From an uncultured Candidatus Saccharibacteria bacterium (GTDB lineage: Bacteria; Patescibacteriota; CPR2; UBA1875; CAIMLA01), in NCBI GenBank assembly GCA_964511435.1, contig CAZEFH010000005.1:1-55589 (forward strand): a stretch of DNA of 55,589 nt. The letters run 5' to 3'. The translations under genes were made by a program, and so were the position numbers. How positions within the stretch are numbered: position 1 is the first letter of the stretch; every line of letters starts with the position of its first letter. Positions 2,047 through 55,589 of the stretch are shown here, one piece after another. The notes below the pieces were generated by a model. That model was given only the letters and a program-made list of their open reading frames with translations. It searched no databases and had not been told where the DNA came from.

Positions 2047-2076
2047 AAATAAAACGACCGAGCGGTCGTTTTATTT
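2047..2076 (-). terminator. Intrinsic terminator after efp
   Basis: AAATAAAACGACCG/CGGTCGTTTTATTT inverted repeat followed by T-run on minus strand. Confidence 0.75.
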
Positions 2077-2631
2077 AGCCCTTTCTACATAGCTGCCATC
2101 AACAGTACTGATACGTATCTTGTCGCCCCTTTTAATAAAGAGAGGAACTGTAACATTTAGCCCGGTTTCAATCGTAACTACTTTCGTCGCAGAGCTAGCG
2201 GTGTCACCGCGGAGTCCCTCAGATGCCTCCGTAACTTCAAAATCCATCTTGGGGGCAAGTTCTAGATTAATTGGTCTTCCCTGATAGAACTGAAACTGAT
2301 AAACTTCGCCGTCCTTGAGATAGTTAAGATTGTTCCCTAGGTCATCTTTTGTTAGCTCAAACTGATCATAGCTATCAACGTCCATGAAGTAATAGCTGCC
2401 ATTGTCCTGATAAAGATACTGAACTTTGTGACGCTCAATCTGAACCTCAGCAAATTTCTCGTTACCCGAAAAAGTTTTCTGAACGATTGCACCTGTTAAC
2501 AGATTACGAATCTTCGTTCGCATTACGGCGCCTGAGCGCCCCTGTTTGGAATGTTGATATTCGAGCACTACGTATGGCGCACCTTCAACTTCGAAGGTGG
2601 TCCCAGTTTTAAGATCGGTAATTCCATACAT
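2071..2631 (-). CDS. efp: Elongation factor P
   Basis: KQGRSGA loop, GDTA motif, VPLFIKRGDKIRIST...YVER. Confidence 0.97.
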   Translation of the reverse strand: MYGITDLKTGTTFEVEGAPYVVLEYQHSKQGRSGAVMRTKIRNLLTGAIVQKTFSGNEKFAEVQIERHKVQYLYQDNGSYYFMDVDSYDQFELTKDDLGNNLNYLKDGEVYQFQFYQGRPINLELAPKMDFEVTEASEGLRGDTASSATKVVTIETGLNVTVPLFIKRGDKIRISTVDGSYVERAK

Positions 2632-2649
2632 ATCGTCTTCCCTTTCCCC

Positions 2650-2780
2650 GAAAAATCAATTTGCCCGCAGGCCGACTATCGTCGAAAGCTAGAAATCTAA
2701 GCGAAGGCTGATTTCGTACTGAGTCGAAGGAGTCTGATTTTTCTTGAACTTAACTCTATTTTCTTTCAAGAGAAAATAGA
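2650..2780. repeat. Structured intergenic element, copy A (copy B at 45909-46047)
   Basis: Shared blocks GAAAAATC, CCGACTATC, CTAGAAAT, ATTTCGTAC.GAG, GAAGGAGT, GATTTTTCTTGAACTT, TTTCAAGAGAAAA; compensatory changes in three stems. Confidence 0.85.
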
Positions 2781-2787
2781 AAAAGAA

Positions 2788-3024
2788 TTATCTATTCACA
2801 AATGGCAACAATGCCATAATACGAGCACGCTTAATAGCAGTCGCTAGCGCACGCTGGTGCCTAGGGCAGCAGCCAGTCTTCTTCTTGGTATCGATTTTAC
2901 CAATGCTAGAAGTAAATTTCTGTAGACCCTTGATGTCCTTGTAGTCGATGAAGTCCACACGGGCTTCACAGAAACGGCAAACTTTCTTGCCAAAGTATCC
3001 TGGTTCTTGTTTTTGATATGCCAT
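2788..3024 (-). CDS. rpsR: 30S ribosomal protein S18
   Basis: CRFC, IDYKD, C..HQRALATAIKRARIMALLPF. Confidence 0.97.
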   Translation of the reverse strand: MAYQKQEPGYFGKKVCRFCEARVDFIDYKDIKGLQKFTSSIGKIDTKKKTGCCPRHQRALATAIKRARIMALLPFVNR

Positions 3025-4353: not shown

Positions 4354-4884
4354 TTAATCAATAGCGTCAGCAAGCTTCCCCTTTACGGACTCGCTCGCTT
4401 TAATGAAGGTATCTTCGACGGTAATCTTATCTTTCTCAATCGAAATAATTTGCCCAAACCCAATGGCAAGCTCTTTAAAATTACCTGATAGTAGCGGTGG
4501 ATTTACATATATTTTATCAATTGTCAGGGCCTTCATATTTAGAGTATAGTCGCGGCACTTACCGAGATACTGGCCTGAAACAGTGTAAACTTTATTTCCC
4601 GAAATACGAGCTTCCTTCTCAAGAACTTGTTTGATACGGACTATTTCATCAAGTTCGCCAAGCGACTCATATGATGCTATCAAGTAGAAATCAGAAGTGA
4701 TACCCAAAAGATCCTTCTCTGGAAGTGCTTTCAGATTCTTTTTCCCGAATCCTTCACGAACAAGAATTCCGACTAACTTGCCAGTATCAGGATCAATAAC
4801 CATATTTTCCATCACACCAACGAGGGCCTTCTCTTTCTTGAGCAAGACCGGCTTGAGGCGTAACTCTGAAGCAAACTTTATCAT
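4354..4884 (-). CDS. PRC-barrel domain protein
   Basis: Two repeats of G.v.dmviDp.tGkl / V.tvsGqyLGk..Dy pattern. Confidence 0.75.
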   Translation of the reverse strand: MIKFASELRLKPVLLKKEKALVGVMENMVIDPDTGKLVGILVREGFGKKNLKALPEKDLLGITSDFYLIASYESLGELDEIVRIKQVLEKEARISGNKVYTVSGQYLGKCRDYTLNMKALTIDKIYVNPPLLSGNFKELAIGFGQIISIEKDKITVEDTFIKASESVKGKLADAID

Positions 4885-5009
4885 AGATACATTATAGCAA
4901 AGACGAACTGGTCCCGAACCCCCGTAGGGGCCGGGACCTGCCTAGGCCCTGGGTGTTTAGCCCCGAGTTTTGGACTTCGTGGGGGTCTAGCCCACGCGAT
5001 TTTGGCCAA
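4881..5009 (-). CDS. Putative 42-aa small ORF (TTG start), GC-rich island 1
   Basis: SD GGAGGTGAT 7 nt upstream; MAKIAWARPPRSPKLGAKHPG...; runs through a hairpin, so weak. Confidence 0.3.
   Translation of the reverse strand: MAKIAWARPPRSPKLGAKHPGPRQVPAPTGVRDQFVFAIMYL
4910..4938 (-). terminator. GC-rich hairpin at 3' end of island 1
   Basis: GGTCCCG-aa-CCCC-cgta-GGGG-c-CGGGACC; no long U tract. Confidence 0.5.
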
Positions 5010-5028
5010 AAGCCGGATCACCTCCGAG

Positions 5029-5064
5029 TCAGAGACCGTTCTCGTGCTCTTGCCAGAGACTCAC
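5029..5064 (-). CDS. Putative 11-aa micro-ORF MSLWQEHENGL (GTG start)
   Basis: SD GGAGGG 6 nt upstream, just after previous stop. Confidence 0.25.
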   Translation of the reverse strand: MSLWQEHENGL

Positions 5065-5082
5065 TTCGGTCCCTCCCCTCGG

Positions 5083-5181
5083 CTAGTCGCCGATGTCAGT
5101 GCAACCGCTGTCCCTCTCCGACGGAGGGGTAGGCTGCGGCATTCCTGGGGGAATACCCCAGCCAGGCCTCTTCGAAGGCAT
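5083..5181 (-). CDS. Putative 32-aa Pro-rich small protein
   Basis: SD GGGAGGTGA overlaps stop of upstream ORF; MPSKRPGWGIPPGMPQPTPPSERDSGCTDIGD. Confidence 0.45.
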   Translation of the reverse strand: MPSKRPGWGIPPGMPQPTPPSERDSGCTDIGD

Positions 5182-5185
5182 CGCG

Positions 5186-5362
5186 TCACCTCCCGAACTT
5201 GCCGTTCTCAGCGGTGACCGTATAGCCACCTTGCGGATGACGAGTGAAGCCGTAGCTTGCCTTGCCGTTACCTTCAGACGGCTCGTGATGGTCCTGGCGA
5301 CGCCCAGTGGCGTCACGGGCCAGTCTCATCGACTGACCATTTTGCACAGTACGACTCTGCAT
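5186..5362 (-). CDS. Putative 58-aa small protein
   Basis: SD GAGGGG directly after stop of 104-aa ORF; MQSRTVQNGQSMRLARDATG...GYTVTAENGKFGR. Confidence 0.5.
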   Translation of the reverse strand: MQSRTVQNGQSMRLARDATGRRQDHHEPSEGNGKASYGFTRHPQGGYTVTAENGKFGR

Positions 5363-5372
5363 ACGTCCCCTC

Positions 5373-5687
5373 TCATCCGACGGCCATTCGCAAACGGAAG
5401 TCCGGTGTGATGATCAGCAGCCCATGTGGAAGCAGGTAACAACGCTTCTCGCTCTGATGAGCTGCTATGACAACCACACTGTGACCCCTCAGACTCACGG
5501 GAAGCTTTTTCATCTCCTTGTGGTCAAGATGGAACTTGTCCGGACCACACATCTCAGCAGTGACGCTTGTGATCCTTCGGGGACAACCAATCAGTTTGAC
5601 CTGATATGACTCCTCCCACAGCTTGGGATCAGCCCGTCGGGTCAGATTCATCCGATACAACAGTGACAGTTGCAGGCGAACTAGCAC
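5373..5687 (-). CDS. Hypothetical protein, 104 aa, first gene of GC-rich island 1
   Basis: GTG start with SD GGGAGGTG at 7 nt; AT-rich promoter-like region upstream. Confidence 0.6.
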   Translation of the reverse strand: MLVRLQLSLLYRMNLTRRADPKLWEESYQVKLIGCPRRITSVTAEMCGPDKFHLDHKEMKKLPVSLRGHSVVVIAAHQSEKRCYLLPHGLLIITPDFRLRMAVG

Positions 5688-5770
5688 GATGGACCACCTC
5701 CCAGGTACTCGTCAATGACATCACTTATAGTTTATAATCATTTCATAGATAAAGTCTAGAAAAGGAAATT

Positions 5771-7117
5771 ATGAATCCAGAAATTTTCAAAGCGTATGAC
5801 ATTCGAGGAATATATCCAACTGAGCTAAATGCAGAGGACGCAAAAAATATTGCTATGGCCTATGCCAGTTGGCTAAAACCAAAGAAAGTAGCCCTTGGTC
5901 GTGATGTCCGACTTTCTGGACCAGAACTTTGGCAGGCTGCGGCGGACGGACTTACTGAAATGGGTGTTGACGTTGTCGATATCGGCGTTATCAGTACAGA
6001 TATGCTATATTTTTCTGTCTCAAACTACGGATTTGACGGAGGGATTACACTATCTGCTTCACACAACGCCAAAGAGTACAATGGAATGAAGATGGTGCGG
6101 GAAGAAGCTCGTCCTATTTCAATTGATTCTGGTATAGCAGAAATCCGTGACCTTGCAATGCAGGGTGAATTTACGCCAGCCGAGGCTAAGGGCTCTATCA
6201 CAAAACTAGAAATTCTTGCTGATTACATTTCCAAGATGACATCATTTGTTAAGACAAATAAAATCAAGCCACTAAAAGTACTCGCAAACCCAAATTTTGG
6301 GGCCGCTGGTGCTGCTATTGAGAAATTAGCCGAAATATACAGTACAGAACTAACTAAACTAAACTTTGAACCTGATGGTAATTTTCCCAAGGGCAAGCCA
6401 GACCCGATGCAAGCCGCCGTTCGTGCCGAGACTGAAGAAATAGCAAAAAGCGGACACTTTGATTTCACCGCAATCTGGGATGCTGACGCAGACAGATGTT
6501 TCTTTTTCGATGAAAAGGGCAATTTTATACTGCCTTACTATATAACTGGTCTAATGATGGATTACTTTCTTGAGCAATACCCAAAAGTCACATTTGTAAT
6601 TGATCCACGTCTTGTCTGGATGCCTGAAAAAATTGCCTCCGAAAACACTGCACAAATCGCCATCAACAAATCTGGTCATTCATTTATAAAAGAGCGTATG
6701 CGTGATGAAGACGCGATATTCGGAGCCGAAACATCAGCGCATTACTACTTCAGAGACCTATGGTACACAGATAATGGGATGGTACCTTTCGTGATTATGC
6801 TTGAACTCGTATCGCAAAGTGATGTACCACTATCCGAGATGGTTAAAAAATATCAGAACATGTCATATGCGATAGAGGAAACCAACTTTATAGTTGAGAG
6901 TGTTCCTGACACTATTGAAAAAGTGAAGGCCGCCTTCCCAGGCGGAACAGAAAGCAATATTGACGGTATCTCAATCGAGTTTTCCAACTGGAGAATGAAT
7001 CTTCGTGGTTCCAATACTGAACCTGTGATAAGATTAAACATAGAAGCAAAAACGAAGGAACTGGCGGAAATAAAGCTCGCCGAACTCACGGAGGTAATAG
7101 GTGGGACTAAGGCATAA
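5771..7117 (+). CDS. manB: Phosphomannomutase/phosphoglucomutase
   Basis: IFKAYDIRG, catalytic SASHN, metal loop DADADR, GAETSAH, RGSNTEP. Confidence 0.95.
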   Translation: MNPEIFKAYDIRGIYPTELNAEDAKNIAMAYASWLKPKKVALGRDVRLSGPELWQAAADGLTEMGVDVVDIGVISTDMLYFSVSNYGFDGGITLSASHNAKEYNGMKMVREEARPISIDSGIAEIRDLAMQGEFTPAEAKGSITKLEILADYISKMTSFVKTNKIKPLKVLANPNFGAAGAAIEKLAEIYSTELTKLNFEPDGNFPKGKPDPMQAAVRAETEEIAKSGHFDFTAIWDADADRCFFFDEKGNFILPYYITGLMMDYFLEQYPKVTFVIDPRLVWMPEKIASENTAQIAINKSGHSFIKERMRDEDAIFGAETSAHYYFRDLWYTDNGMVPFVIMLELVSQSDVPLSEMVKKYQNMSYAIEETNFIVESVPDTIEKVKAAFPGGTESNIDGISIEFSNWRMNLRGSNTEPVIRLNIEAKTKELAEIKLAELTEVIGGTKA

Positions 7118-10359: not shown

Positions 10360-10448
10360 GGAAGGATCGCATAGTTGGCCTAGTGCGCACGCTTGGAAAG
10401 CGTGTATACCGCAAGGTATCGAGGGTTCGAATCCCTCTCCTTCCGCCA
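10360..10448 (+). tRNA. tRNA-Ser (GGA)
   Basis: Cloverleaf, anticodon arm CACGC-TTGGAAA-GCGTG, long variable arm, GGTTCGAATCC, encoded CCA. Confidence 0.97.
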
Positions 10449-10479
10449 AAATGCCTCAACGCATGTTGAGGCATTTTTA
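10448..10479 (+). terminator. Intrinsic terminator after tRNA-Ser
   Basis: AAAATGCCTCAAC-gcat-GTTGAGGCATTTT plus T-run. Confidence 0.85.
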
Positions 10480-10529: not shown

Positions 10530-11333
10530 ATGCAGGTTGAAGGAAAAGTATTTGTCGTTACAGGTGCTGCTAGCGGAATGGGGAAAGAGATTACTCTTCA
10601 GCTACTAAAAAAAGGCGCCAAGGTGGCTGCGGTTGACCTCAAGGAAGAAGCGCTCACAGAACTAGTAGCAGCAGTGGGAAATCCCCATGAAAATCTTTCG
10701 ACATATGCGGTAAATGTGTCGGACAAGAAGGCTGTTGAGGCTTTGCCGGCCGCTGTAATCAAAGACTTCGGTGGGGTAGATGCCATTATCAATAATGCCG
10801 GCATCATTCAGCCATTTGTGAAAGTAAATGACCTAGACTATGATGCCATCGAGCGCGTAATGAACGTAAACTTCTACGGTGTCCTATACATGACTAAGGC
10901 GTTTCTACCATATCTACTAAAGCGTCCTGCGGCATATGTAGCCAATACTTCCAGTATGGGAGGCTTTCTACCAGTCCCAGGACAAGGAGTCTATGGAGCC
11001 TCAAAAGCAGCGGTAAAACTGATGACCGAGGCGCTCTATGCCGAACTAAAAGATACCAGTGTCGGAGTGTCTATCATTTTCCCGGGAGCTATCAACACTC
11101 ACATCACCGAGAACTCCGGTGTAAAGGCACCTAGTATGCCAAAGGGTGCCAAAGAATACAAAACTCTCAGTGCCGATAAGGCGGCAGCGATCATTATTGC
11201 CGGCATCGAGAAGAATCAACCACAAATTTTTGTGGGATCAGACTCGAAAATGATGAATTTGCTCTATCGCCTAAATCCTGTAGGCGCAACTAATCTTATC
11301 GCCAAGCAAATGAAAGACCTACTAGGTAAATAA
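10530..11333 (+). CDS. Short-chain dehydrogenase/reductase
   Basis: TGAASGMG, NNAG, YGASK catalytic motif. Confidence 0.95.
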   Translation: MQVEGKVFVVTGAASGMGKEITLQLLKKGAKVAAVDLKEEALTELVAAVGNPHENLSTYAVNVSDKKAVEALPAAVIKDFGGVDAIINNAGIIQPFVKVNDLDYDAIERVMNVNFYGVLYMTKAFLPYLLKRPAAYVANTSSMGGFLPVPGQGVYGASKAAVKLMTEALYAELKDTSVGVSIIFPGAINTHITENSGVKAPSMPKGAKEYKTLSADKAAAIIIAGIEKNQPQIFVGSDSKMMNLLYRLNPVGATNLIAKQMKDLLGK

Positions 11334-41960: not shown

Positions 41961-42635
41961 TCAACCTTCAAGGCTATTTACGGCTTCCTCAACTGTAATG
42001 GCATTTTCAATATTATATTCGCCAATCTGAGTACGGCGTAATTCAGTCAAGTACGCACCGGTACCGAGTGCTTTCCCCATGTCTTCACCCAGAGTCCGAA
42101 TATATGTCCCGGAAGAACATTTGACTCGAATTTTCAGTTCTGGAAAATCGTAATCTATTACATTTAATTCATAAATAGTGACTTTTCTGGGCTTTAGCGC
42201 AACTTCTTTACCTTCGCGGGCGAGCTTGTACGCTCGCTTGCCGTCCACCTTCATGGCAGAGTAGATTGGTGGTGTTTGTGAAATTTCGCCGATAAAGCTT
42301 TGCAAAATATGGTCAATTTTCTCTTCTGCTGGTTGTTGATAGTTAGTTGTTGACTGATTTATCTCTCCTTCCGGGTCCCCAGTCGTACTCGTAAAACCAA
42401 GCTTCAAAGTGGCCTCATATTCCTTGTCCTGTTTCATAAATTCGTCTTGTCTCTTCGTGGCGTCTTTCCCAACAAGCACAATGAGTAGGCCTGTTGCAAA
42501 GGGGTCAAGTGTTCCAGCATGACCAACCTTAGTATTTCTGTCACCAGTAACTTTTCTAGCGGCACCACGAATCTTCGCCACCACATCAAATGATGTCCAT
42601 TCCGCCGGCTTATCTATAAGGAGTATATTATTCAT
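41961..42635 (-). CDS. truB: tRNA pseudouridine(55) synthase
   Basis: DKPAEWTSFDVV, GHAGTLDPFATG, PPIYSAMKVDG, SGTYIR. Confidence 0.97.
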   Translation of the reverse strand: MNNILLIDKPAEWTSFDVVAKIRGAARKVTGDRNTKVGHAGTLDPFATGLLIVLVGKDATKRQDEFMKQDKEYEATLKLGFTSTTGDPEGEINQSTTNYQQPAEEKIDHILQSFIGEISQTPPIYSAMKVDGKRAYKLAREGKEVALKPRKVTIYELNVIDYDFPELKIRVKCSSGTYIRTLGEDMGKALGTGAYLTELRRTQIGEYNIENAITVEEAVNSLEG

Positions 42636-42801
42636 AAATTCATTCTCTCATTATTGTTCAAACATGGCGAGGACTAAAGATTCAGGCCAGTATATTATAA
42701 ATGACCATAACAAACGAAAAGCGGCCCAGACGCAATTGCATCTTGGCCGCATGACCCTTTGGTGGCCCGGTCCTGTCACGGGTCCACCACCTACAGTGAG
42801 C

Positions 42802-43128
42802 CTACCTCGGGAGCCAGAACGCAAGTTCCTGAAGCAGTCGCTTCTTCGGCATCGCGCCGACGACCTTCTTGACGACTTTGCCATCGGCGAAAACCAGGAC
42901 GGTCGGTATCGACAAGATGTCGTACTTTCCGGCGATACCTGGCTCGAGGTCTACGTTCAGTCGCCCAATACTGAGATCGGGGTACTCCGTGGCAACTTCC
43001 CGCCACACCGTCTCCATCATACGGCACGGGCCGCACCAGGGTGCCCAGGTGTCGAGGACGAAGGGTTTCTCACGCGTGGCGGTCAATTCGTCGAAGTTGT
43101 CAGCCGTGACCTCCGTGATGCTATTCAT
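42802..43128 (-). CDS. trxA: Thioredoxin (start re-assigned to ATG 43128)
   Basis: WAPWCGPC, LNVD, SIPTV cis-Pro; SD GGGAGGT. Confidence 0.95.
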   Translation of the reverse strand: MNSITEVTADNFDELTATREKPFVLDTWAPWCGPCRMMETVWREVATEYPDLSIGRLNVDLEPGIAGKYDILSIPTVLVFADGKVVKKVVGAMPKKRLLQELAFWLPR

Positions 43129-43168
43129 GCAGTTCACCTCCCTCTTCTTACTGAGAGTTCATCGGTTG

Positions 43169-43297
43169 TCAGTACTCCTCGGGCTCGAAGCGCTCCTGCA
43201 GTTCTTGCCACTTCGCCACCAAGGTGCGCCAATGCGGCAGAACGAAGGCAACTGCGATGAGGCCGCAGACAATCCACGGTGTCCAGCTAGTCTTCAT
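43169..43297 (-). CDS. 42-aa small membrane protein (below ORF-track cutoff)
   Basis: MKTSWTPWIVCGLIAVAFVLPHWRTLVAKWQELQERFEPEEY; start overlaps upstream ORF end. Confidence 0.65.
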   Translation of the reverse strand: MKTSWTPWIVCGLIAVAFVLPHWRTLVAKWQELQERFEPEEY

Positions 43298-43547
43298 CTG
43301 GTTCCACCGTCCTCCAGCAGAAGCCCTCGCTTCCACTGAATTCGTCGGATTTGCCCCGCTTGTCCTTGAGGTCCATCATGTCGGAGAAGACCTCAACGGT
43401 GGCGCCCGAAGGCACGCCAAGCTCGTCAGCGAGCCTCCGCAGTGAACCAGGACCATCGCTGTAAACGACGCCACCGTCAGTGAAGCACATTGCTTGTCGC
43501 ACGCCGTTAGCGAGTGTCGCTACCAGCCAGAACAACTTCGCCTGCAT
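43287..43547 (-). CDS. Hypothetical protein, 86 aa
   Basis: SD AAAGGAG; operon position; GC-rich codons. Confidence 0.7.
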   Translation of the reverse strand: MQAKLFWLVATLANGVRQAMCFTDGGVVYSDGPGSLRRLADELGVPSGATVEVFSDMMDLKDKRGKSDEFSGSEGFCWRTVEPDED

Positions 43548-43562
43548 GACCCGCTCCTTTCA

Positions 43563-43814
43563 CTACTCGGTGAGACCTACGTAGGCCCACCTGCCATAGT
43601 CTCCGAAGAACTTCCAGCGGCCGTCAGACAGCCGGATAGGAGCCCTCGGCGACACGTTGTAGAACGAGTACATACCGGTCTCGGTAAAGAAGGTTATGGT
43701 ACCCTTCCCCATGTAGTCCACCCTGACATCGACGATGGTACCACGGTACCGCAACCGATTCTCAAAGGTGTACAACTGGAGACCGGTGAAGCCTTTCTTC
43801 TTGATTGCCTTCAA
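43563..43814 (-). CDS. Hypothetical beta-rich protein, 83 aa (TTG start)
   Basis: SD GAGGAGG; operon position. Confidence 0.7.
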   Translation of the reverse strand: MKAIKKKGFTGLQLYTFENRLRYRGTIVDVRVDYMGKGTITFFTETGMYSFYNVSPRAPIRLSDGRWKFFGDYGRWAYVGLTE

Positions 43815-43839
43815 CTCGGCCTCCTCTCACTGTGCGTAG

Positions 43840-44085
43840 CTACTGCTCCTTGATCGTGCTGACGCAGTCGGCGCAGACCGGGCGGTTCTTGATCTTCGTG
43901 GTCTCGACGTCCGTAGCACCACAGATGGCACACGAATCCTTGTGTTTCGTGAGGATGATGCGCTCGCCTTCGACGAAGATGGCAACCGGGTCCTTGACGT
44001 TGATGCCAAGGGTCCGGCGCAGCTCCATCGGGATGACGATCCGACCGAGGTCGTCGACACGACGAACGATTCCTGTATCATGCAT
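43840..44085 (-). CDS. abrB: AbrB/Abh-family transition-state regulator with C-terminal Zn ribbon (start re-assigned to 44085)
   Basis: DTGIVRRVDDLGRIVIPMELRRTLGI closely matches Bacillus AbrB N-domain; CAIC...CADC; SD AAGGAG. Confidence 0.9.
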   Translation of the reverse strand: MHDTGIVRRVDDLGRIVIPMELRRTLGINVKDPVAIFVEGERIILTKHKDSCAICGATDVETTKIKNRPVCADCVSTIKEQ

Positions 44086-44188
44086 GTAGCATTCTCCTTC
44101 GGTATCCCAGTTGTGACGGTACATTTTGCCGGTTCATCTTGAACTGACATATAGGGCCTGAGCTTCAGGCTCGCTATCTCACTTCAAG

Positions 44189-45805
44189 TTATTTCCAGAT
44201 ATTTCGGTCTATTGGCTGATTGCCTTTTTCATCAAGCGCCTTACCAGGAGTATAGTCAAACATAACTTCCCCAAGCTTACGCAGGGATTCCTTTTTATCT
44301 TTTACTTCTTCAACGTCAATATTGGGTGTTTCTTTGGTGATAGGGCCACCTGATTCAATCTCATTATCTATCGAAATGAGAGCATTTTCTATATCATCGT
44401 TGGTTGCTGTATTCAAATCACCTGATACCGTATTCACCTGTTGCGTTTCATGACTAGAACTAAAGATTTCCTCATAGCTAGGCTCGATATCAGTAGTTTC
44501 TGTACCTTCAAGAGCTTTCTCGATTGATAATAGGTCACTTAAATCTTCGGTATTTTCTGCTTCAAGCTTCACCTCCACAACCACATCCTCTACGAGACTA
44601 TTCGGTGCCGTAACTGGGACTTTCTCCTCTACTACCGCTTCCTGCACCATCTGTGTTCTTGTCGCCGATGTAACTAGCTGCTTATCCCGATATTCTGCAA
44701 TTTTCGTAAGTATTTTCGCTTTCTGTGTCGCTATGGTCGCATTCGGCAGTGTAAAGGCAGCTTCTAGTGCCTTGCCATGACCACCAAAGAGCTCTGCTAT
44801 AGTAAGCACTTCCTGACCACCGAGACCCTTCATCATTCCTACGAGCTTACCTTTTTCCTCAACAAGCACTAGCACTATGTCAGTACCAGGAGCACTAGCA
44901 AGAAGCTCATCGAGAACTCCCTTAACATTATCAGCAGTTGCTCCAGCTTCAGCAAGATCATCAGCAACAATGCTCGAGACCACCATACGGTGTTTATGAT
45001 TATATTCAATATTTGAAAGCACTTTGCCCCAGAGTTTCAATGTTGAAAGAGGACGCGTCTTGTACAGGTTTTGAATAATTTCCTGTTGGCGTGCTCCAGC
45101 TGCGAGCATCTGAGCTGAGATGGTAAGAGACTTTGGAGTTGTCCCAACATTTTTAAAGCTAGCAGTATCTGCGATGAGGCCCGTAAGCAGACAAGTCGCA
45201 ACGTCGGCGGTAAAGTTATTTGGCCCCATCGCCTCGATGATTGAAACAAGAATCTCTGCTGTTGATGTGGCGGTCATATCTACGAGATTGACGGTACCGA
45301 AGTATTCATTGCCACTATGGTGATCAATGTTTATGATTGGCACTTCGAAGAATAGTTCTGTAAACTTGTCGTAGACACTATCTATCTTCTCCACGTCCGG
45401 AGTATCAAGCACAAATATCAGGTCATAGTGATAATTACCTGCTACAATCTTGAGGTCTTTGGCTTCGAGCAGCTTTCCCTTCGGAGATATAACAATACTA
45501 ATGACACCATCGTCTTCGTTATAGCCAATTTTCTCTATATCAGTCTTTTTTTTATCAATCTGAACTATGAGGTCGCGTGCCGGTACATCTCGCTGAACTT
45601 TTTCAATTCCAGGAAGAAAGGTGAGAGGCTGGGCAATATCATCTGATAGCACAAGGCTAACTTCCTTACCCTGAGACGCAAGGACCTGTTCAAGAGCAAG
45701 CATAGAACCGAGAAGGTCGCCATCAGGACTCTTGTGACCAACTATCAGGATTCTTTGGTTGTTTTTAATCAGCTCCGCTATTTGCTGTTTTGGTGATAGC
45801 TCCAT
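44189..45805 (-). CDS. DHH family phosphoesterase (NrnA-like) with long acidic C-terminal tail
   Basis: HKSPDGD, IDHH, DTASF motifs; promoter TTGACA-N17-TATGAT at 45876-45848; start re-assigned to 45805. Confidence 0.85.
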   Translation of the reverse strand: MELSPKQQIAELIKNNQRILIVGHKSPDGDLLGSMLALEQVLASQGKEVSLVLSDDIAQPLTFLPGIEKVQRDVPARDLIVQIDKKKTDIEKIGYNEDDGVISIVISPKGKLLEAKDLKIVAGNYHYDLIFVLDTPDVEKIDSVYDKFTELFFEVPIINIDHHSGNEYFGTVNLVDMTATSTAEILVSIIEAMGPNNFTADVATCLLTGLIADTASFKNVGTTPKSLTISAQMLAAGARQQEIIQNLYKTRPLSTLKLWGKVLSNIEYNHKHRMVVSSIVADDLAEAGATADNVKGVLDELLASAPGTDIVLVLVEEKGKLVGMMKGLGGQEVLTIAELFGGHGKALEAAFTLPNATIATQKAKILTKIAEYRDKQLVTSATRTQMVQEAVVEEKVPVTAPNSLVEDVVVEVKLEAENTEDLSDLLSIEKALEGTETTDIEPSYEEIFSSSHETQQVNTVSGDLNTATNDDIENALISIDNEIESGGPITKETPNIDVEEVKDKKESLRKLGEVMFDYTPGKALDEKGNQPIDRNIWK

Positions 45806-45908
45806 AAGCTTCCTTTTACACCCACCCAAGAATTAATGTGACTTGCTATCATACACCCGGAGACCCGTCATGTCAAGCACAAAAATACCATAATTGTGCT
45901 CCTGTTTT

Positions 45909-46047
45909 GAAAAATCGCTCGGTGCTAACAAGAACCCGACTATCATCCTCTAACTAGAAATTACTGAGAAGCAGAATTTCGTACCGAGATGAAGGAGTTC
46001 GATTTTTCTTGAACTTTTGGATACTTTTATTTCAAGAGAAAAGTATC
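45909..46047. repeat. Structured intergenic element, copy B
   Basis: Homologous to 2650-2780 with covarying stems. Confidence 0.85.
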
Positions 46048-46125
46048 AGTAATTTGCCCCACTTCAGTGAGGCAGAACAGAATCCCGCCTTCGCAGAGAT
46101 GGCAAAAGAGGCTATAATAATAGCC

Positions 46126-47094
46126 ATGGACAAAACTATCGCAACACTTACAGACCCCAGCAACAATCTATTTCAATCTCAAGTTTGGGAAGACTATCAA
46201 GAAGCTCTTGGGCACAAGGTGTTTCGTGTCAGTTGCGATGATAGCAGTGCTCTATTAATCAAGCTACCACTCTACAAAGACAAAAGCTTTCTCTATTGTC
46301 CCAGAGGACCGATGTGCAAAAAGCAAGGTTGGCACGTTCTCTTACGGAAAGCAAAGCAAATTGCAGCGGCAGAAAACTGCGTGTTTTTGCGAGTGGAACC
46401 CTATCAGCTCCCGGCCGAAACCATGAGGGAACTAAAGTTTCGACGCGTTACTGCCACTTCTCCACTGTCACGTCAGTATTCTCCCATGGATACTCAGGTT
46501 CTTGATATAACAAAACGGGATGATGACCTGTTAGCGGAAATGAAACCAAAGTGGCGCTACAACATCAAGCTTGCATACCGTAAAGGCGTCACTGTCAGAG
46601 AAAGCACCTCTCTGGCTGACCTCAAAGTATTCCACCAGCTTTCTCTTGGAATGAAAGACCGGGGCTACACCCCATTTGACCTTCCTCACTACGAACGCTT
46701 ACTCTATGGGCTAACAGCTGGCAAACACGTAAAGATGTTTATCGCGGAATACCAAAAGAAGCCACTTTCCATCTTACTCATTACATACTACGGCAAAACA
46801 GCCACTTACCTCCATGGCGCCTCTAGCGACGAGCATCGTGAACTGATGCCAAACCATTTGGCACAGTGGGAATCGATCCTTGCTGCCCAGCGTCTTGGCT
46901 GTGAAGTGTATGATTTTTGGGGCGTCGCTCCAGAGGGAGATGAGAAGCATAGTTGGTCTGGTATTACCCGATTTAAAAAGGGTTTTGGAGGACGAACAGT
47001 TCACTTTGTCGGTGCTTATGATGCAATTTTTGATAAAAAGTGGTACAATGCCTTCCATCTAATTAATTTTGTGCGTAAAACAATAAAGAAATGA
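46126..47094 (+). CDS. FemABX/MurM family lipid II aminoacyl transferase (start re-assigned to ATG 46126)
   Basis: LFQSQVW, YCPRGP, MKPKWRYNI, YLHGAS, YDFWG, FKKGFGG. Confidence 0.92.
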   Translation: MDKTIATLTDPSNNLFQSQVWEDYQEALGHKVFRVSCDDSSALLIKLPLYKDKSFLYCPRGPMCKKQGWHVLLRKAKQIAAAENCVFLRVEPYQLPAETMRELKFRRVTATSPLSRQYSPMDTQVLDITKRDDDLLAEMKPKWRYNIKLAYRKGVTVRESTSLADLKVFHQLSLGMKDRGYTPFDLPHYERLLYGLTAGKHVKMFIAEYQKKPLSILLITYYGKTATYLHGASSDEHRELMPNHLAQWESILAAQRLGCEVYDFWGVAPEGDEKHSWSGITRFKKGFGGRTVHFVGAYDAIFDKKWYNAFHLINFVRKTIKK

Positions 47095-49684: not shown

Positions 49685-51817
49685 ATGGAGATGTCTAAGA
49701 ATTTCAAACCAAAAGAAATGGAACCATCGATTTATAAAAGCTGGGAAGAGGGTGGCTACTTTAAGCCAATCGCTCGCTATGGCTCTACCAAGCCTTTTGT
49801 GGTTACGATTCCGCCACCAAATGTTACTGGCGTTCTTCATATGGGGCATGCTTTAAACAATACGATTCAGGACGTCTTGGTCCGCTGGAACCGCATGCAA
49901 GGGAATGAAACTCTGTGGGTCCCAGGGACTGATCATGCTGGTATCGCCACACAGAATAAAGTCGAACAAAAGCTTGCTGCTAAAGGCAAAACTCGTTTTG
50001 ACCTTGGACGTGAAAACTTTGTCAAAGAAACATGGAAGTGGAAAGAGGAGTACGAAACTCGCATCCTTGGCCAGCTGAAGACTATGGGCTGCTCCTGTGA
50101 CTGGGACCACACCCGCTTTACCATGGACGCTGACTACTCAGAAGCCGTTCTCGAGGCCTTCGTTCACTATTACGAAAAGGGCTATCTATATCGAGGAAAC
50201 CGTATTACCAACTGGTGTCCACGCTGTGGCACTTCTCTCTCTGATCTTGAAGTTGAGCACGAGGAGCGTAATGATAATCTGTGGCATATTCGATATGGAG
50301 TCGAGGGCGGTGGTGAAATTACTGTTGCTACTACTCGCCCTGAGACTATGCTCGGCGACACCGCTATAGCCGTAAATCCTAGTGACAAGCGCTATAAAGA
50401 CCTCGTAGGCAAAAGAGCTATATTGCCTATCCTAGGGCGCAAAATACCTATAGTCGCTGATGATTATGTCGACGCCAAGTTCGGTACGGGTGCCGTAAAA
50501 GTTACTCCTGCGCACGATCCTAACGACTTTGAAATCGGCGAGCGACACAAGCTGGAAAAAATTGTGGTCATTGACCTTGAGGGTAAAATGTCCACTGAAG
50601 CAGGCGAACAATTTGTCGGGATAGACAGATATGAGGCACGCGAAGCCATAATCCGTTTGCTCGAAGAAGGTAAATGGCTAGTTAAAACCGAACCACACAC
50701 TCATGCTGTAGGTCATTGTTACCGCTGTCATACTGTAATTGAACCCCTGTTGACTCTCCAGTGGTTTGTGAAGATGGGTGAAATCGTGAAGCCGGCAACA
50801 GAAGTTGTTCGCTCAGGGAAAGTAAAATTTCACCCAGCAAAGTGGTCTAAGGTTTATCTTGACTGGATGGATAATATCCGTGACTGGTGTGTATCTCGTC
50901 AGATCTGGTGGGGACACCAGATACCGGCCTGGTATTGTGAGTGCGGTGAGATTATTGTCACCAAAGAAGAGCCAAAGAAATGCTCTGAATGTGGCTCTAC
51001 CAAGCTAAAAAGAGATGATGATGTTCTCGACACTTGGTTTTCTAGTGCGCTTTGGCCATTTGCCACTTTAGGTTGGCCTGACCAGTCAAACGACCTTCAA
51101 AACTATTATCCAACTTCGTTTCTGTCGACCGCTAGAGACATTATTTACCTTTGGGTAGCCAGAATGATCTTCTCTGGGCTTGAGTTTACTGGGAAGATTC
51201 CATTTGACGACGTCTACATTCATGCAACGGTTTTCAATTCGGAAGGCAAAAGGATGTCCAAGTCTCTTGGGACTGGTGTTGATCCACTTGAACTAATTGA
51301 AAAATATGGGACTGATGCAACCCGTTTCGGCTTGCTTTGGCAGGTTGCACAGGGACAAGACATGAAATTCTCTGAAGATGCACTCTTGATGTCCCAGCGG
51401 TTTGTCAATAAGATCTGGAATGCATCGAAGTTTACTCTCATGAACTTAAAGGACTACAAAATTGTTTCACGTGAAACAATAGAAAAGCAACTGACTACAG
51501 AGGACAAGCAAGTGCTAAGGAAACTTGACGGCTTAGTTAAAGAAACTAATCGTTACCTTGAAAAATACGATTTCCAACATGCAGTAGAGAATATATACGA
51601 CTTTTTCTGGCATGAGTTCTGTGATAGGTGCATCGAAGACACCAAAAAACGTATTTACGAGGAGCAAGAAAGTAAAATTGCCGCCCAATATACTCTTCAC
51701 ACTGTGCTTACAACGTCATTAAAGCTACTTCACCCATTTATGCCATTTGTTACTGAGGAGATTTGGGCTTCCCTAGATCAAAAAGATCCACTGGTTATTA
51801 CTCAGTGGCCCAAATAG
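49685..51817 (+). CDS. valS: Valine--tRNA ligase (710 aa, lacks C-terminal coiled-coil arm)
   Basis: PPPNVTGVLHMGHA, ATTRPETMLGD, DWCVSRQIWWGH, RMSKS. Confidence 0.97.
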   Translation: MEMSKNFKPKEMEPSIYKSWEEGGYFKPIARYGSTKPFVVTIPPPNVTGVLHMGHALNNTIQDVLVRWNRMQGNETLWVPGTDHAGIATQNKVEQKLAAKGKTRFDLGRENFVKETWKWKEEYETRILGQLKTMGCSCDWDHTRFTMDADYSEAVLEAFVHYYEKGYLYRGNRITNWCPRCGTSLSDLEVEHEERNDNLWHIRYGVEGGGEITVATTRPETMLGDTAIAVNPSDKRYKDLVGKRAILPILGRKIPIVADDYVDAKFGTGAVKVTPAHDPNDFEIGERHKLEKIVVIDLEGKMSTEAGEQFVGIDRYEAREAIIRLLEEGKWLVKTEPHTHAVGHCYRCHTVIEPLLTLQWFVKMGEIVKPATEVVRSGKVKFHPAKWSKVYLDWMDNIRDWCVSRQIWWGHQIPAWYCECGEIIVTKEEPKKCSECGSTKLKRDDDVLDTWFSSALWPFATLGWPDQSNDLQNYYPTSFLSTARDIIYLWVARMIFSGLEFTGKIPFDDVYIHATVFNSEGKRMSKSLGTGVDPLELIEKYGTDATRFGLLWQVAQGQDMKFSEDALLMSQRFVNKIWNASKFTLMNLKDYKIVSRETIEKQLTTEDKQVLRKLDGLVKETNRYLEKYDFQHAVENIYDFFWHEFCDRCIEDTKKRIYEEQESKIAAQYTLHTVLTTSLKLLHPFMPFVTEEIWASLDQKDPLVITQWPK
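51463..51478. other. parS centromere-like site within valS
   Basis: Perfect TGTTTCACGTGAAACA. Confidence 0.85.
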
Positions 51818-51842
51818 TTAATGTTTCACCCGACTATATAAT

Positions 51843-51858
51843 TGTTTCACGTGAAACA
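51843..51858. other. parS centromere-like site, intergenic
   Basis: Perfect TGTTTCACGTGAAACA; half-site TGTTTCAC about 20 nt upstream. Confidence 0.9.
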
Positions 51859-51890
51859 ATAGCTAGAGAATTATTACTTTTCTAGAACTC

Positions 51891-55498: not shown

Positions 55499-55534
55499 TA
55501 ATAAAAAATGAGGCAGCTTGCCTCTTTTTTTATT

Positions 55535-55589
55535 TGGCGGAGAGGGAGGGATTCGAACCCTCGATACCTTGCGGTATGACGGTGTTCGA
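55535..55589 (-). tRNA. tRNA-Ser (CGA), 5' part beyond window
   Basis: Reverse complement TCGAAC-ACCGT...variable arm...GGTTCGAATCCCTCCCTCTCCGCCA. Confidence 0.9.

Follow-up and report, generated by a model that had tools for sequence, protein, structure and literature searches.

Two paralogous copies of a structured non-coding element in a Saccharibacteria genome carry a hairpin module found in three phyla

What kind of element occupies two distant intergenic spacers of a Saccharibacteria genome in the same folded form? Saccharibacteria and other bacteria of the candidate phyla radiation (CPR) have tiny genomes, and to our knowledge almost no non-coding elements have been described in them. 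The element examined here lies on a contig of 55,589 nucleotides (CAZEFH010000005.1), which was analysed over its full length and is called the window below. The window is a housekeeping stretch whose gene content fits a Saccharibacteria genome, and its nearest public relative is a Candidatus Saccharibacteria metagenome-assembled genome (MAG). A first-pass annotation had pointed to a structured element of ~130 nucleotides at two places in the window. It proposed either a non-coding RNA or cis-element family, or a repeat akin to repetitive extragenic palindromes (REP) or miniature inverted-repeat transposable elements (MITE).

The two loci (copy A, 2646-2785; copy B, 45905-46051) are homologous and lie in direct orientation. 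Alignment of 2630-2810 with 45880-46080 by MAFFT gives 76% column identity and places every previously listed block in both. A repeat finder reports an ungapped direct repeat of 63 nucleotides at 78% identity (2689-2751 / 45954-46016), and the block GAAGGAGT-NN-GATTTTTCTTGAACTT, with 24 specified bases, is present at exactly two places in the window and absent from all 100 dinucleotide shuffles. Pairwise identity of the copies is 62-76%. Alignment, repeat finder and shuffles thus confirm two related copies of 130-140 bases; the core measures ~140 nucleotides, and copy B with its 3' extension ~220. Copy A occupies nearly all of the 156-nucleotide spacer between rpsR (2788-3024, minus strand) and efp (2071-2631, minus strand), and copy B lies between a DHH/NrnA-like gene (44189-45805, minus strand) and a FemAB-like gene that starts at 46126 on the plus strand (Table 1). 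We conclude that a structured non-coding element of Saccharibacteria is present here in two paralogous copies.

The first-pass annotation had recognised no known family in these sequences, and the database searches agree. At gathering thresholds, Rfam 15 detects only three tRNAs in the whole window, none of them on the element. Searches of both copies at E ≤10 (4227 models) return only microRNA, small nucleolar RNA and long non-coding RNA noise of at most 21 bits. ARAGORN, which detects tRNA and transfer-messenger RNA (tmRNA), makes no call on the element, either in the window or at eight homologous loci.

A 20-base core pattern matched only one of 185,579 GTDB species genomes, a Saccharibacteria MAG with two copies in other contexts: one downstream of rnpA-yidD (locus L001) and one between clpP and a nif3-like gene (L002). 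A metagenome scan with the 3' part found at least 120 loci; among the matches listed, the full element is present in eight, and nine homologues beyond the window pair were found in metagenome or MAG contigs of Saccharibacteria type. A covariance model, R1, built from ten sequences recovers them at 112-150 bits and scores copy A at 135.8 bits and copy B at 124.4 bits. R1 also finds one extra, degenerate copy (L034:553-740). Searches for phage carriage of the Saccharibacteria-type element gave no matches.

RNAalifold and the covariance model agree on a layout consisting of a closing stem P1, a hairpin P2, an arm P2a-P3-P4 and a 3' hairpin, H1. P1 is an A/U-rich stem of 8-9 base pairs, and P2 is a GC-rich hairpin seen by eye, its columns not being aligned. 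These are followed by the conserved junction CCGACUA, P2a (GACU/AGUY), P3 (UCGWC/GWCGA) and P4 (GAAAU/AUUUC) with an apical stem that varies. Internal loops hold the conserved blocks GAAUGCUA and GUACAGAG, an AGG is bulged, and CUUGAAC and H1 complete the element. GNRA- or UUCG-like loops are found in some members, and a CU-rich tract precedes P1 in all 11 homologues, including those without an adjoining divergent gene. Three of these features had been overlooked in the first reading: P2, P3 (TCGTC/GTCGA in copy A, TCATC/GATGA in copy B) and the hexaloop TTCAAG of the terminal hairpin, which is complementary to CTTGAA just 3' of P1.

Covariation upholds the earlier claim that selection acts on this structure. 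Pairing of P1 is kept between copy A (GAAAAATCA/TGATTTTTC) and copy B (GAAAAATCG/CGATTTTTC), and P4 changes from GAAATC/GATTTC to GAAATT/AATTTC. The compensatory changes reported for P1, P4, the apical stems and the terminal hairpin are all present. A further one, GACT/AGTC versus GACT/AGTT, is a genuine difference but a one-sided change from G-C to G-U, and is therefore not compensatory. The alignment of 11 sequences was fitted to the covariance model and so leans towards structure; in it, standard pairs fill 96.6% of pair cells versus 82.5% after shuffling, and 16 of 33 pairs show two-sided changes. The covariation score is 0.411, versus 0.152 for shuffled alignments, and none of 500 shuffles reaches the observed score. 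When the structure is slid by 1-3 columns, the score is at most 0.077.

The plus strand is weakly favoured as the folding strand. Non-Watson-Crick pairs read on this strand comprise 15 G-U and two A-C, and folding z-scores for the two copies are -3.3 and -2.0 on the plus strand and -2.8 and -1.1 on the minus strand. The preference is only weak because seven of the 15 G-U cells sit at a single pair position (columns 34/108) that lacks two-sided change and may not be a real pair.

Whereas the Y-shaped domain formed by P1, P2 and P2a-P3-P4 is specific to this lineage, H1 is a 45-nucleotide module with a far wider distribution. It consists of CTTGAN, ~7 nucleotides, a stem of 10-12 base pairs and a hexaloop N'TCAAG. 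A metagenome scan with the pattern CTTGAACTT-N9-16-TTTCAAGAGAA found at least 120 loci; among the matches listed, to which the counts in this paragraph refer, nearly all have the full hairpin, and the domains upstream of H1 are unrelated. The common layout runs CTTGA-N, C/T-TTTTGG, stem, CTTTT-xx, loop N'TCAAG, x'x'-AAAAG and the other side of the stem. Of 94 distinct hairpins with an NTCAAG loop and a stem of at least 8 base pairs, 90 have CTTGAN just upstream, and N pairs with N' in every one of these (A-T in 60, T-A in 21 and C-G in 9). The hexamer of the loop and the upstream hexamer covary without exception, and the scan pattern did not select for the 30 cases other than A-T. The stems consist almost purely of Watson-Crick pairs: ~1300 pairs at the first 10 stem positions include 20 G-T, 10 A-C and 14 other mismatches. 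On geometric grounds, a fully paired hexaloop and a complete H1 stem would be hard to accommodate in one compact pseudoknot, and the pairing of loop and flank may be transient, intermolecular or dependent on partial opening of the stem.

In the Saccharibacteria type, a different helix is also possible. In both copies (2735-2780 and 46000-46047), the H1 loop and the 3' strand of the H1 stem (UUCAAGAGAAAAU) could instead be paired by the 3' P1 strand together with CUUGAA (AUUUUUCUUGAA). The resulting helix of 12 pairs and one bulged A excludes both P1 and H1, is specific to this type and resembles a switch.

H1 modules occur as tail-out inverted pairs 60-600 nucleotides apart, as direct tandems 47-48 nucleotides apart, and in arrays with a period of ~300 nucleotides. 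In annotated records they are found in gut Bacteroidales (Parabacteroides distasonis) and in a Fusobacterium relative, Ilyobacter polytropus DSM 2926, whose replicon NC_014633 (962 kb) carries H1 at 21 places. The pattern of the metagenome scan also gives three matches with the full hairpin, on three viral contigs, and four without it in IMG/VR. The Ilyobacter element and the Bacteroidales class have the internal sequence AAACTCGCTGCGCTCAGACAG in common, implying transfer between the phyla. At one Bacteroidales chromosomal site, samples differ by ~430 nucleotides of internal sequence and one extra module of 48 nucleotides. Apart from an A/G mismatch, H1 of copy B is one compensated base pair away from the common Bacteroidales module (GGTTAC/GTAAC versus GGATAC/GTATC). 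In Saccharibacteria, H1 is found only singly and joined to the Y-shaped domain; when ~290 kb from Saccharibacteria was searched, without regard to sequence, for hairpins with a hexaloop complementary to a hexamer upstream, only the H1 modules of the element were returned. Rfam has no overlapping match in 12 loci of other module classes. No Rfam entry was found for H1, and limited literature searches by sequence string and keyword found no description of H1 or the element, the string matches to the module being short hairpin RNA loops and primers only.

No protein family, Y1 enzyme or transposase is enriched near the modules among the matches listed. Tyrosine recombinase genes, in any case common in Bacteroidales, lie near only four module loci. 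One tail-out pair, 1.4 kb apart (L108), encloses an open reading frame (ORF) that by eye is NERD-like and not a transposase. A separate arrangement is the tandem array at L027:1-1615 (minus strand), whose ~300-nucleotide units each combine a structured domain, H1 and a converging small hydrophobic ORF of ~27 amino acids (MLSVWASLAADFIGVIATIIVGCIFFK). One unit carries a CTTGAT/ATCAG variant of the loop/flank pair, and the array is reminiscent of type I toxin-antitoxin systems.

Positions of the Saccharibacteria element are not conserved. In relatives whose EF-P is 80-84% identical, the rpsR-efp spacer is 77-101 nucleotides long and unrelated in sequence; one of these relatives is the MAG that carries copies elsewhere. 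The element is absent from this spacer in L124, L125 and L126. On one contig where RpsR is identical, so is the element, which indicates stability within the species. Four relatives (L129-L132) have no copy upstream of the DHH gene. One of these, L129, has the same divergent femAB/DHH arrangement with a spacer of 132 nucleotides, and the comparison shows that the window gained a block of ~245 nucleotides directly upstream of a conserved -35 motif. Sequence similarity does not follow location: copy A is nearest to the copy between clpP and nif3, copy B to that downstream of yidD, and each of these two genomes has one copy of each of two sequence subtypes. No downstream gene is common to the copies, the flanking genes differ at every copy (efp, DHH phosphoesterase, nif3, helicase and others are unrelated), and three to four copies have no downstream gene on either choice of strand. 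The Saccharibacteria element lies mostly antisense between co-directional genes. Single modules in other phyla, by comparison, lie overwhelmingly in sense between co-directional genes (~16 versus 1), with unrelated genes downstream.

Two loci show further arrangements. At L034, a gene similar by eye to Ni,Fe-hydrogenase large subunits has two converging copies on its flanks (553-740 and 2284-2433). In the left copy P3 is long, with full compensation (TCGTGAGAATG/CATTCTCACGA), and H1 is split by a GC-rich insertion, with a degraded loop/flank match. At L125:6168-8464, the DHH gene is divergent from and adjoins a PRC-rpsF-ssb-rpsR-efp cluster. In the window the PRC cluster and the DHH gene (4354-4884 and 44189-45805) are ~39 kb apart, the DHH operon is inverted relative to L125, and one breakpoint of this rearrangement coincides with copy B.

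A second hairpin module, H2, of the form AGAT(T/C)CC...GG(G/A)ATGAC(A/G), lies 20-60 nucleotides 3' of H1 in most homologues and is degenerate in copy B. H2-like hairpins also lie 3' of H1 in Bacteroidetes arrays. The same family, including GAT(T/C)(T/C)C..G(G/A)(G/A)ATGAC(A/G), forms inverted doublets in intercistronic spacers of Saccharibacteria. Such doublets fill the rpsR-efp spacer of L124, L126 and L127, the very spacer that holds the element in the window, so these spacers turn over through the gain of repeats. Because H2 occurs both in the element and alone, the element can be described as a mosaic of hairpin modules. In L124, a GIY-YIG gene of 102 amino acids (10601-10909), inserted after efp and absent from L125 and L126, has one H2 immediately 5' of it and another inside its 3' end. 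H2 appears to be a REP-like family and may belong with a mobile GIY-YIG cassette. A GIY-YIG gene beside a copy had been proposed as something to look for: the window has none, and the link exists only for this different hairpin family, in this one relative.

We tentatively favour the reading that the element is a low-copy, modular, non-autonomous intergenic repeat of the BOX/BIME/MITE kind (BIME, bacterial interspersed mosaic element) whose single-stranded fold is under selection. The lineage-specific Y-shaped domain would be joined to H1 and mostly followed by H2, and the resulting element would enter or replace intergenic spacers. The fold of one strand would be kept because a trans-acting factor recognises it for copying or moving. 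The element could also supply signals to its neighbours; in copy B, the best promoter-like site of the FemAB-like gene is inside the inserted block. For the Saccharibacteria element we infer mobility, a single-stranded form (RNA or single-stranded DNA) and the trans-acting factor. A repeat best explains the module family and its dynamics, the spread across phyla, the non-synteny, and the lack of a common neighbour or of a promoter/terminator pair.

Several known repeats resemble the element in part. BOX of Streptococcus pneumoniae and BIME or REP of enterobacteria are likewise built of short hairpin modules that are single, inverted or tandem, intergenic, variable in number per site and without coding capacity; boxB, at 45 nucleotides, compares with the 47-48-nucleotide units of H1. 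However, REP and BOX sequences are species-specific, whereas H1 is near-identical across phyla, has a loop hexamer covarying with its upstream hexamer and lacks a GTAG/CGTC tag. The Saccharibacteria element, unlike BOX and BIME, is low-copy with a complex Y-shaped domain. REP are imperfect palindromes of 20-40 nucleotides, often in inverted doublets, a description that suits H1 with its hairpin of 10-12 base pairs and its tail-out pairs in Bacteroidales and Ilyobacter. At the 5' foot of the hairpin, where REP carry GTAG/CGTC, the flank of H1 is instead CTTGAN and C/T-TTTTGG. No gene for a REP-associated tyrosine transposase (RAYT; Y1 HUH) was found among the window ORFs (by eye, with a Pfam scan of 10), and none is enriched near modules among the matches listed. 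Copy number is 21 places on the Ilyobacter replicon, two copies in the 55.6-kb window and none in ~110 kb from relatives.

MITE have terminal inverted repeats and target-site duplications, which the element lacks: the arms of P1 are internal, preceded by the CU tract and followed by H1, and the spacers of relatives are too diverged to place exact element ends. Presence/absence polymorphism at orthologous sites, another mark of MITE, is found at rpsR-efp (L124-L126), upstream of DHH (L129-L132) and in the Bacteroidales module indels. A related autonomous element encoding a transposase was not (the L108 pair encloses none, and there is no transposase cluster among the matches listed). The earlier suggestion of a REP/MITE-like element therefore stands as far as H1 is a widespread repeat module and orthologous spacers lack the element, but the formal definitions of REP and MITE do not apply. 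Correia/NEMIS and enterobacterial repetitive intergenic consensus (ERIC) sequences count among the MITE-like repeats; they fold when transcribed into RNA and contain parts of promoters. The element resembles them in its length (100-200 nucleotides), intergenic position, variable presence between relatives and placing of promoter-like hexamers next to a gene (copy B, femAB). It differs in having no terminal inverted repeats at its true ends, no TA or other target duplication and a far lower copy number.

REPIN/RAYT elements and the IS200/IS605-derived palindrome-associated transposable elements (PATE) are single-stranded DNA elements recognised as hairpins by Y1 HUH enzymes (PMC6006769). Short conserved flanking motifs, inverted doublets, an orientation bias relative to genes and stem compensation are all common to these and the present modules. 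However, the guide tetranucleotide of REPIN and PATE sits at the 5' foot of the hairpin, while the complementary partner of the H1 flank is the hairpin loop. The closest published item concerns "atypical secondary structures" near Bacteroidetes subclass 2.6 Y1 genes (PMC6006769); the atypical REP listed for that subclass in its supplement do not match H1.

A number of observations weigh against the repeat reading. The window holds just two diverged copies in 55.6 kb, with no sign of a recent burst, unlike typical MITE; R1 finds no third copy in it and none in ~110 kb from relatives. No target-site duplication, defined terminus or autonomous partner was found, and the window has no transposase, Y1 or GIY-YIG gene, as judged from its ORFs by eye and a Pfam scan of 10 unassigned ORFs; the first-pass annotation had likewise seen no transposase. 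Conserved unpaired junction nucleotides and compensation at 16 of 33 pairs are what a functional RNA gene would show. One copy (L116) is divergent from a DHH gene with a different flank on its other side, and the DHH-adjacent copy has likely been retained vertically to some extent, in two species, despite rearrangement on that other side. Finally, the opposite orientation bias in Saccharibacteria and other phyla is predicted by no simple mobility model.

The main rival reading is a family of trans-acting small RNA (sRNA) genes, a possibility that deserves to be taken seriously although we consider it somewhat unlikely. Each genome would hold two paralogues, transcribed from the plus strand by their own promoters, with the CU-rich tract (anti-Shine-Dalgarno-like) acting as seed, the Y-shaped domain providing the scaffold and the H1 hairpin protecting the 3' end. 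Four features are best explained by an sRNA: copies are few, they have diverged deeply yet with compensation, the junction nucleotides are conserved, and the element is placed antisense. Conserved structure with covariation is expected of sRNAs, and the invariant unpaired junction blocks, the presence of the CU-rich tract in all homologues and the pairing of one copy per sequence subtype in each of two genomes also fit. The usual position of the element, antisense between co-directional genes, is what an independent unit would show; a CATAAT hexamer is found 15-20 nucleotides upstream of P1 in copy B; and the G-U excess and slightly better folding z-scores point to the plus strand. Nevertheless, seven of those G-U cells fall at the one doubtful pair position. 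A scan for sigma-70-like consensus finds no promoter-like site upstream of copy A, and none is conserved across homologues. No U-tract follows H1, so there is no evident intrinsic terminator, and a scan finds none after either copy. Positions are non-syntenic even among close relatives, and the near identity of H1 to a multi-copy repeat of Bacteroidales and Ilyobacter is left unexplained. In its closing P1, conserved junction nucleotides and covarying helices the element resembles three-way-junction sRNAs and riboswitch aptamers, from which it differs in having no Rfam match, common downstream gene, promoter/terminator pair or synteny. The repeat and sRNA readings are not exclusive, and a mobile element carrying a functional RNA would satisfy both.

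A broader proposal, which we rate as unlikely, is that H1 and its attached domains represent a new class of functional single-stranded element in Bacteroidota, Fusobacteriota and Patescibacteria that serves a trans-acting enzyme moving or processing it. The element could then be a guide or handle RNA, a small ribozyme with its hexaloop docked on a P1-stacked CUUGAN strand, or a single-stranded DNA substrate, and the Y-shaped domain of Saccharibacteria would be its lineage-specific functional part. Whichever reading holds, H1 has nearly the same sequence in three phyla and is multi-copy in Bacteroidales and Ilyobacter, and its recogniser is probably common to, or transferred between, members of gut and oral communities. 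Cultivable carriers exist in Parabacteroides distasonis and Ilyobacter polytropus DSM 2926. For the tiny genomes of CPR bacteria, a folded element that moves between spacers would, if true, be among the first handles on regulation and rearrangement, and it may bring a promoter to a cell-wall gene.

It is quite improbable that the element acts in cis as a leader on the minus strand, with the order stop codon of gene 1, hairpin, folded domain and Shine-Dalgarno sequence of gene 2, and with an internal ACUCCUUC (anti-Shine-Dalgarno-like) sequestering the ribosome-binding site in the manner of a riboswitch or RNA thermometer. A minus-strand gene has its start on the P1 side in seven of 10 copies, and one has its end on the H1 side in eight of 11. 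In copy A and L002 the start codon is 15-17 nucleotides from P1, and the CU-rich tract complements the Shine-Dalgarno sequence of that gene. However, a leader should lie consistently before related genes on the same strand, and the downstream genes of the element are unrelated. Three loci (L001, L089 and L034a) have no following gene on the minus strand at all, G-U pairs turn into A-C mismatches on that strand, and in L076 a hairpin with a T-run, read by eye as the terminator of an upstream L25 gene, separates that gene from the element. A strong promoter-like site lies between copy B and the DHH gene, and the L116 spacer shows the conserved -35 motif by eye. The DHH site is also conserved in L129, a relative lacking the element, and its position suggests that copy B is outside the DHH gene leader; if both promoter-like sites flanking copy B are real promoters, the copy is in neither neighbour's transcript. 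Of the non-coding RNA or cis-element alternative first proposed, the cis branch is therefore disfavoured. As a separate point, the FemAB-like gene is apparently leaderless, its TATAAT ending 7 nucleotides before the ATG (46090-46126), and its -35-like TTCGCA belongs to the degenerate H2 hairpin (3' half) within the inserted block.

Very improbable, in our view, is a double-stranded DNA site for dimeric proteins or for recombination, in which the interleaved palindromes CTTGAN...N'TCAAG and 11-base-pair arms round a 6-base-pair core would be dif/lox-like. The almost purely Watson-Crick H1 stem, the difficulty of a compact pseudoknot and an 11-6-11 geometry like that of tyrosine-recombinase core sites are in keeping with such a site. 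However, the stem sequences vary freely yet stay complementary, which a sequence-specific dimer would not tolerate; the nested helices with bulges and conserved loops of the Y-shaped domain lack a rationale in double-stranded DNA; and tyrosine recombinase genes are near only four loci. A decayed chance duplication without selection, which the first-pass annotation had named as its refutation and to which the mere two copies in the window might point, can be set aside with near certainty, since compensatory changes preserve the fold in 11 homologues from different contigs, genuine intergenic spacers of these genomes can no longer be aligned, and the common 24-base block has zero chance expectation.

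Other candidates were considered and rejected. A small ORF from the TTG of CTTGAAC (after GAAGGAG) runs through the conserved TTTCAAGAGAAAA in a frame that differs between the copies and spans 11 amino acids to readthrough. The copies are not attL/attR of a 43-kb island, as composition is uniform and housekeeping genes (primase, sigma factor, polA, recA, ftsK, pnp) lie between them. H1 is not an intrinsic terminator, lacking a U-tract on either strand, and holds no promoter, with no hexamer pair at usable spacing by eye or by scan. On inspection it also differs from an integron attC, its complementary pairs being interleaved rather than nested and CTTGAAC misfitting RYYYAAC. Readings of H1 as IS200/IS605, IS91 or an inverton fail because no HUH or recombinase gene is associated with it and no inversion was seen between samples; the CTTG/GAAC tetranucleotides of H1 do resemble IS91 targets, and a TCAA is found 3' of the hairpin on the minus strand. 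Type I toxin-antitoxin systems were discarded since a small hydrophobic ORF adjoins the module only in arrays of the L027 type and not at the window copies, as was tmRNA, for which ARAGORN is negative despite smpB lying upstream in L089.

Table 1. Features of the two copies of the element in the window, with H2 sites of related loci
Feature	Position	Strand	Remarks
Copy A, pyrimidine-rich tract TCTTCCCTTTCCCC	2636-2649	+	immediately 5' of P1; opposite strand is the Shine-Dalgarno region of efp (start codon 2631)
Copy A, Y-shaped domain	2650-2743	+	conserved GTACTGAG and AGGAG between its stems
Copy A, P1	2650-2658 / 2735-2743	+	
Copy A, P2 hairpin	2663-2672	+	
Copy A, conserved junction CCGACTATC	2672-2680	+	
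Copy A, P2a	2674-2677 / 2731-2734	+	
Copy A, P3	2679-2683 / 2723-2727	+	
Copy A, P4	2692-2697 / 2710-2715	+	apical stem 2700-2702 / 2707-2709
Copy A, module H1	2743-2780	+	CTTGAA 2743-2748, then linker CTTAAC
Copy A, H1 stem	2755-2764 / 2771-2780	+	hexaloop TTCAAG 2765-2770
Copy A, A-rich tail	2781-2787		runs into rpsR stop codon 2788-2790
Copy B, pyrimidine-rich tract GTGCTCCTGTTTT	45896-45908	+	5' of P1
Copy B, Y-shaped domain	45909-46008	+	P1 45909-45917 / 46000-46008
Copy B, P2 hairpin	~45921-45937	+	
Copy B, junction CCGACTATC	45937-45945	+	
Copy B, P3, P4 and apical stem			TCATC / GATGA; GAAATT / AATTTC; CTG / CAG
Copy B, module H1	46008-46047	+	CTTGAA 46008-46013, hexaloop TTCAAG 46031-46036
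Copy B, H1 stem	46020-46030 / 46037-46047	+	one A/G mismatch
Copy B, 3' extension	46056-46125	+	same inserted block; hairpin GCCCCAC/GTGAGGC 46056-46073
Copy B, degenerate H2 hairpin GAATCCCGCCTTCGCAGAGATGGCA	46080-46104	+	
Copy B, promoter-like TTCGCA-17-TATAAT	46090-46118	+	ends 7 nucleotides before femAB-like ATG 46126
Promoter-like TTGACA-17-TATGAT of DHH/NrnA-like gene	45848-45876	-	11/12 matches; between gene and copy B; context, not part of the element
H2 sites in related loci	L124:9919-9978, 10571-10597, 10865-10891; L126:9919-9978; L089:1731-1798; L002:1733-1757		window site 46080-46104 degenerate

Elsewhere in the window, a stretch of 880 nucleotides between the PRC-barrel and phosphoglucomutase genes (4885-5770) is somewhat GC-rich and contains short ORFs that overlap in several frames and no convincing gene; Rfam gives no match at E ≤1 in 4880-5780. 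Local GC content rises to 0.52 at 42000-44150, where several ORFs overlap on both strands, and a MazE/AbrB-like gene of 94 amino acids (43840-44124, minus strand) lies downstream of the DHH gene, as in relatives. The perfect 20-base-pair palindrome ATTGTTTCACGTGAAACAAT occurs at 51461-51480 and 51841-51860, 380 nucleotides apart, within 31-nucleotide repeats of 94% identity close to where valS ends and a TPR-protein gene starts, and is probably an operator pair for a dimeric regulator. Finally, 45 nucleotides at 55533-55577 (minus strand) are 93% complementary to the 3' half of tRNA-Ser(GGA) at 10406-10450 and probably belong to another tRNA-Ser gene cut by the window end.

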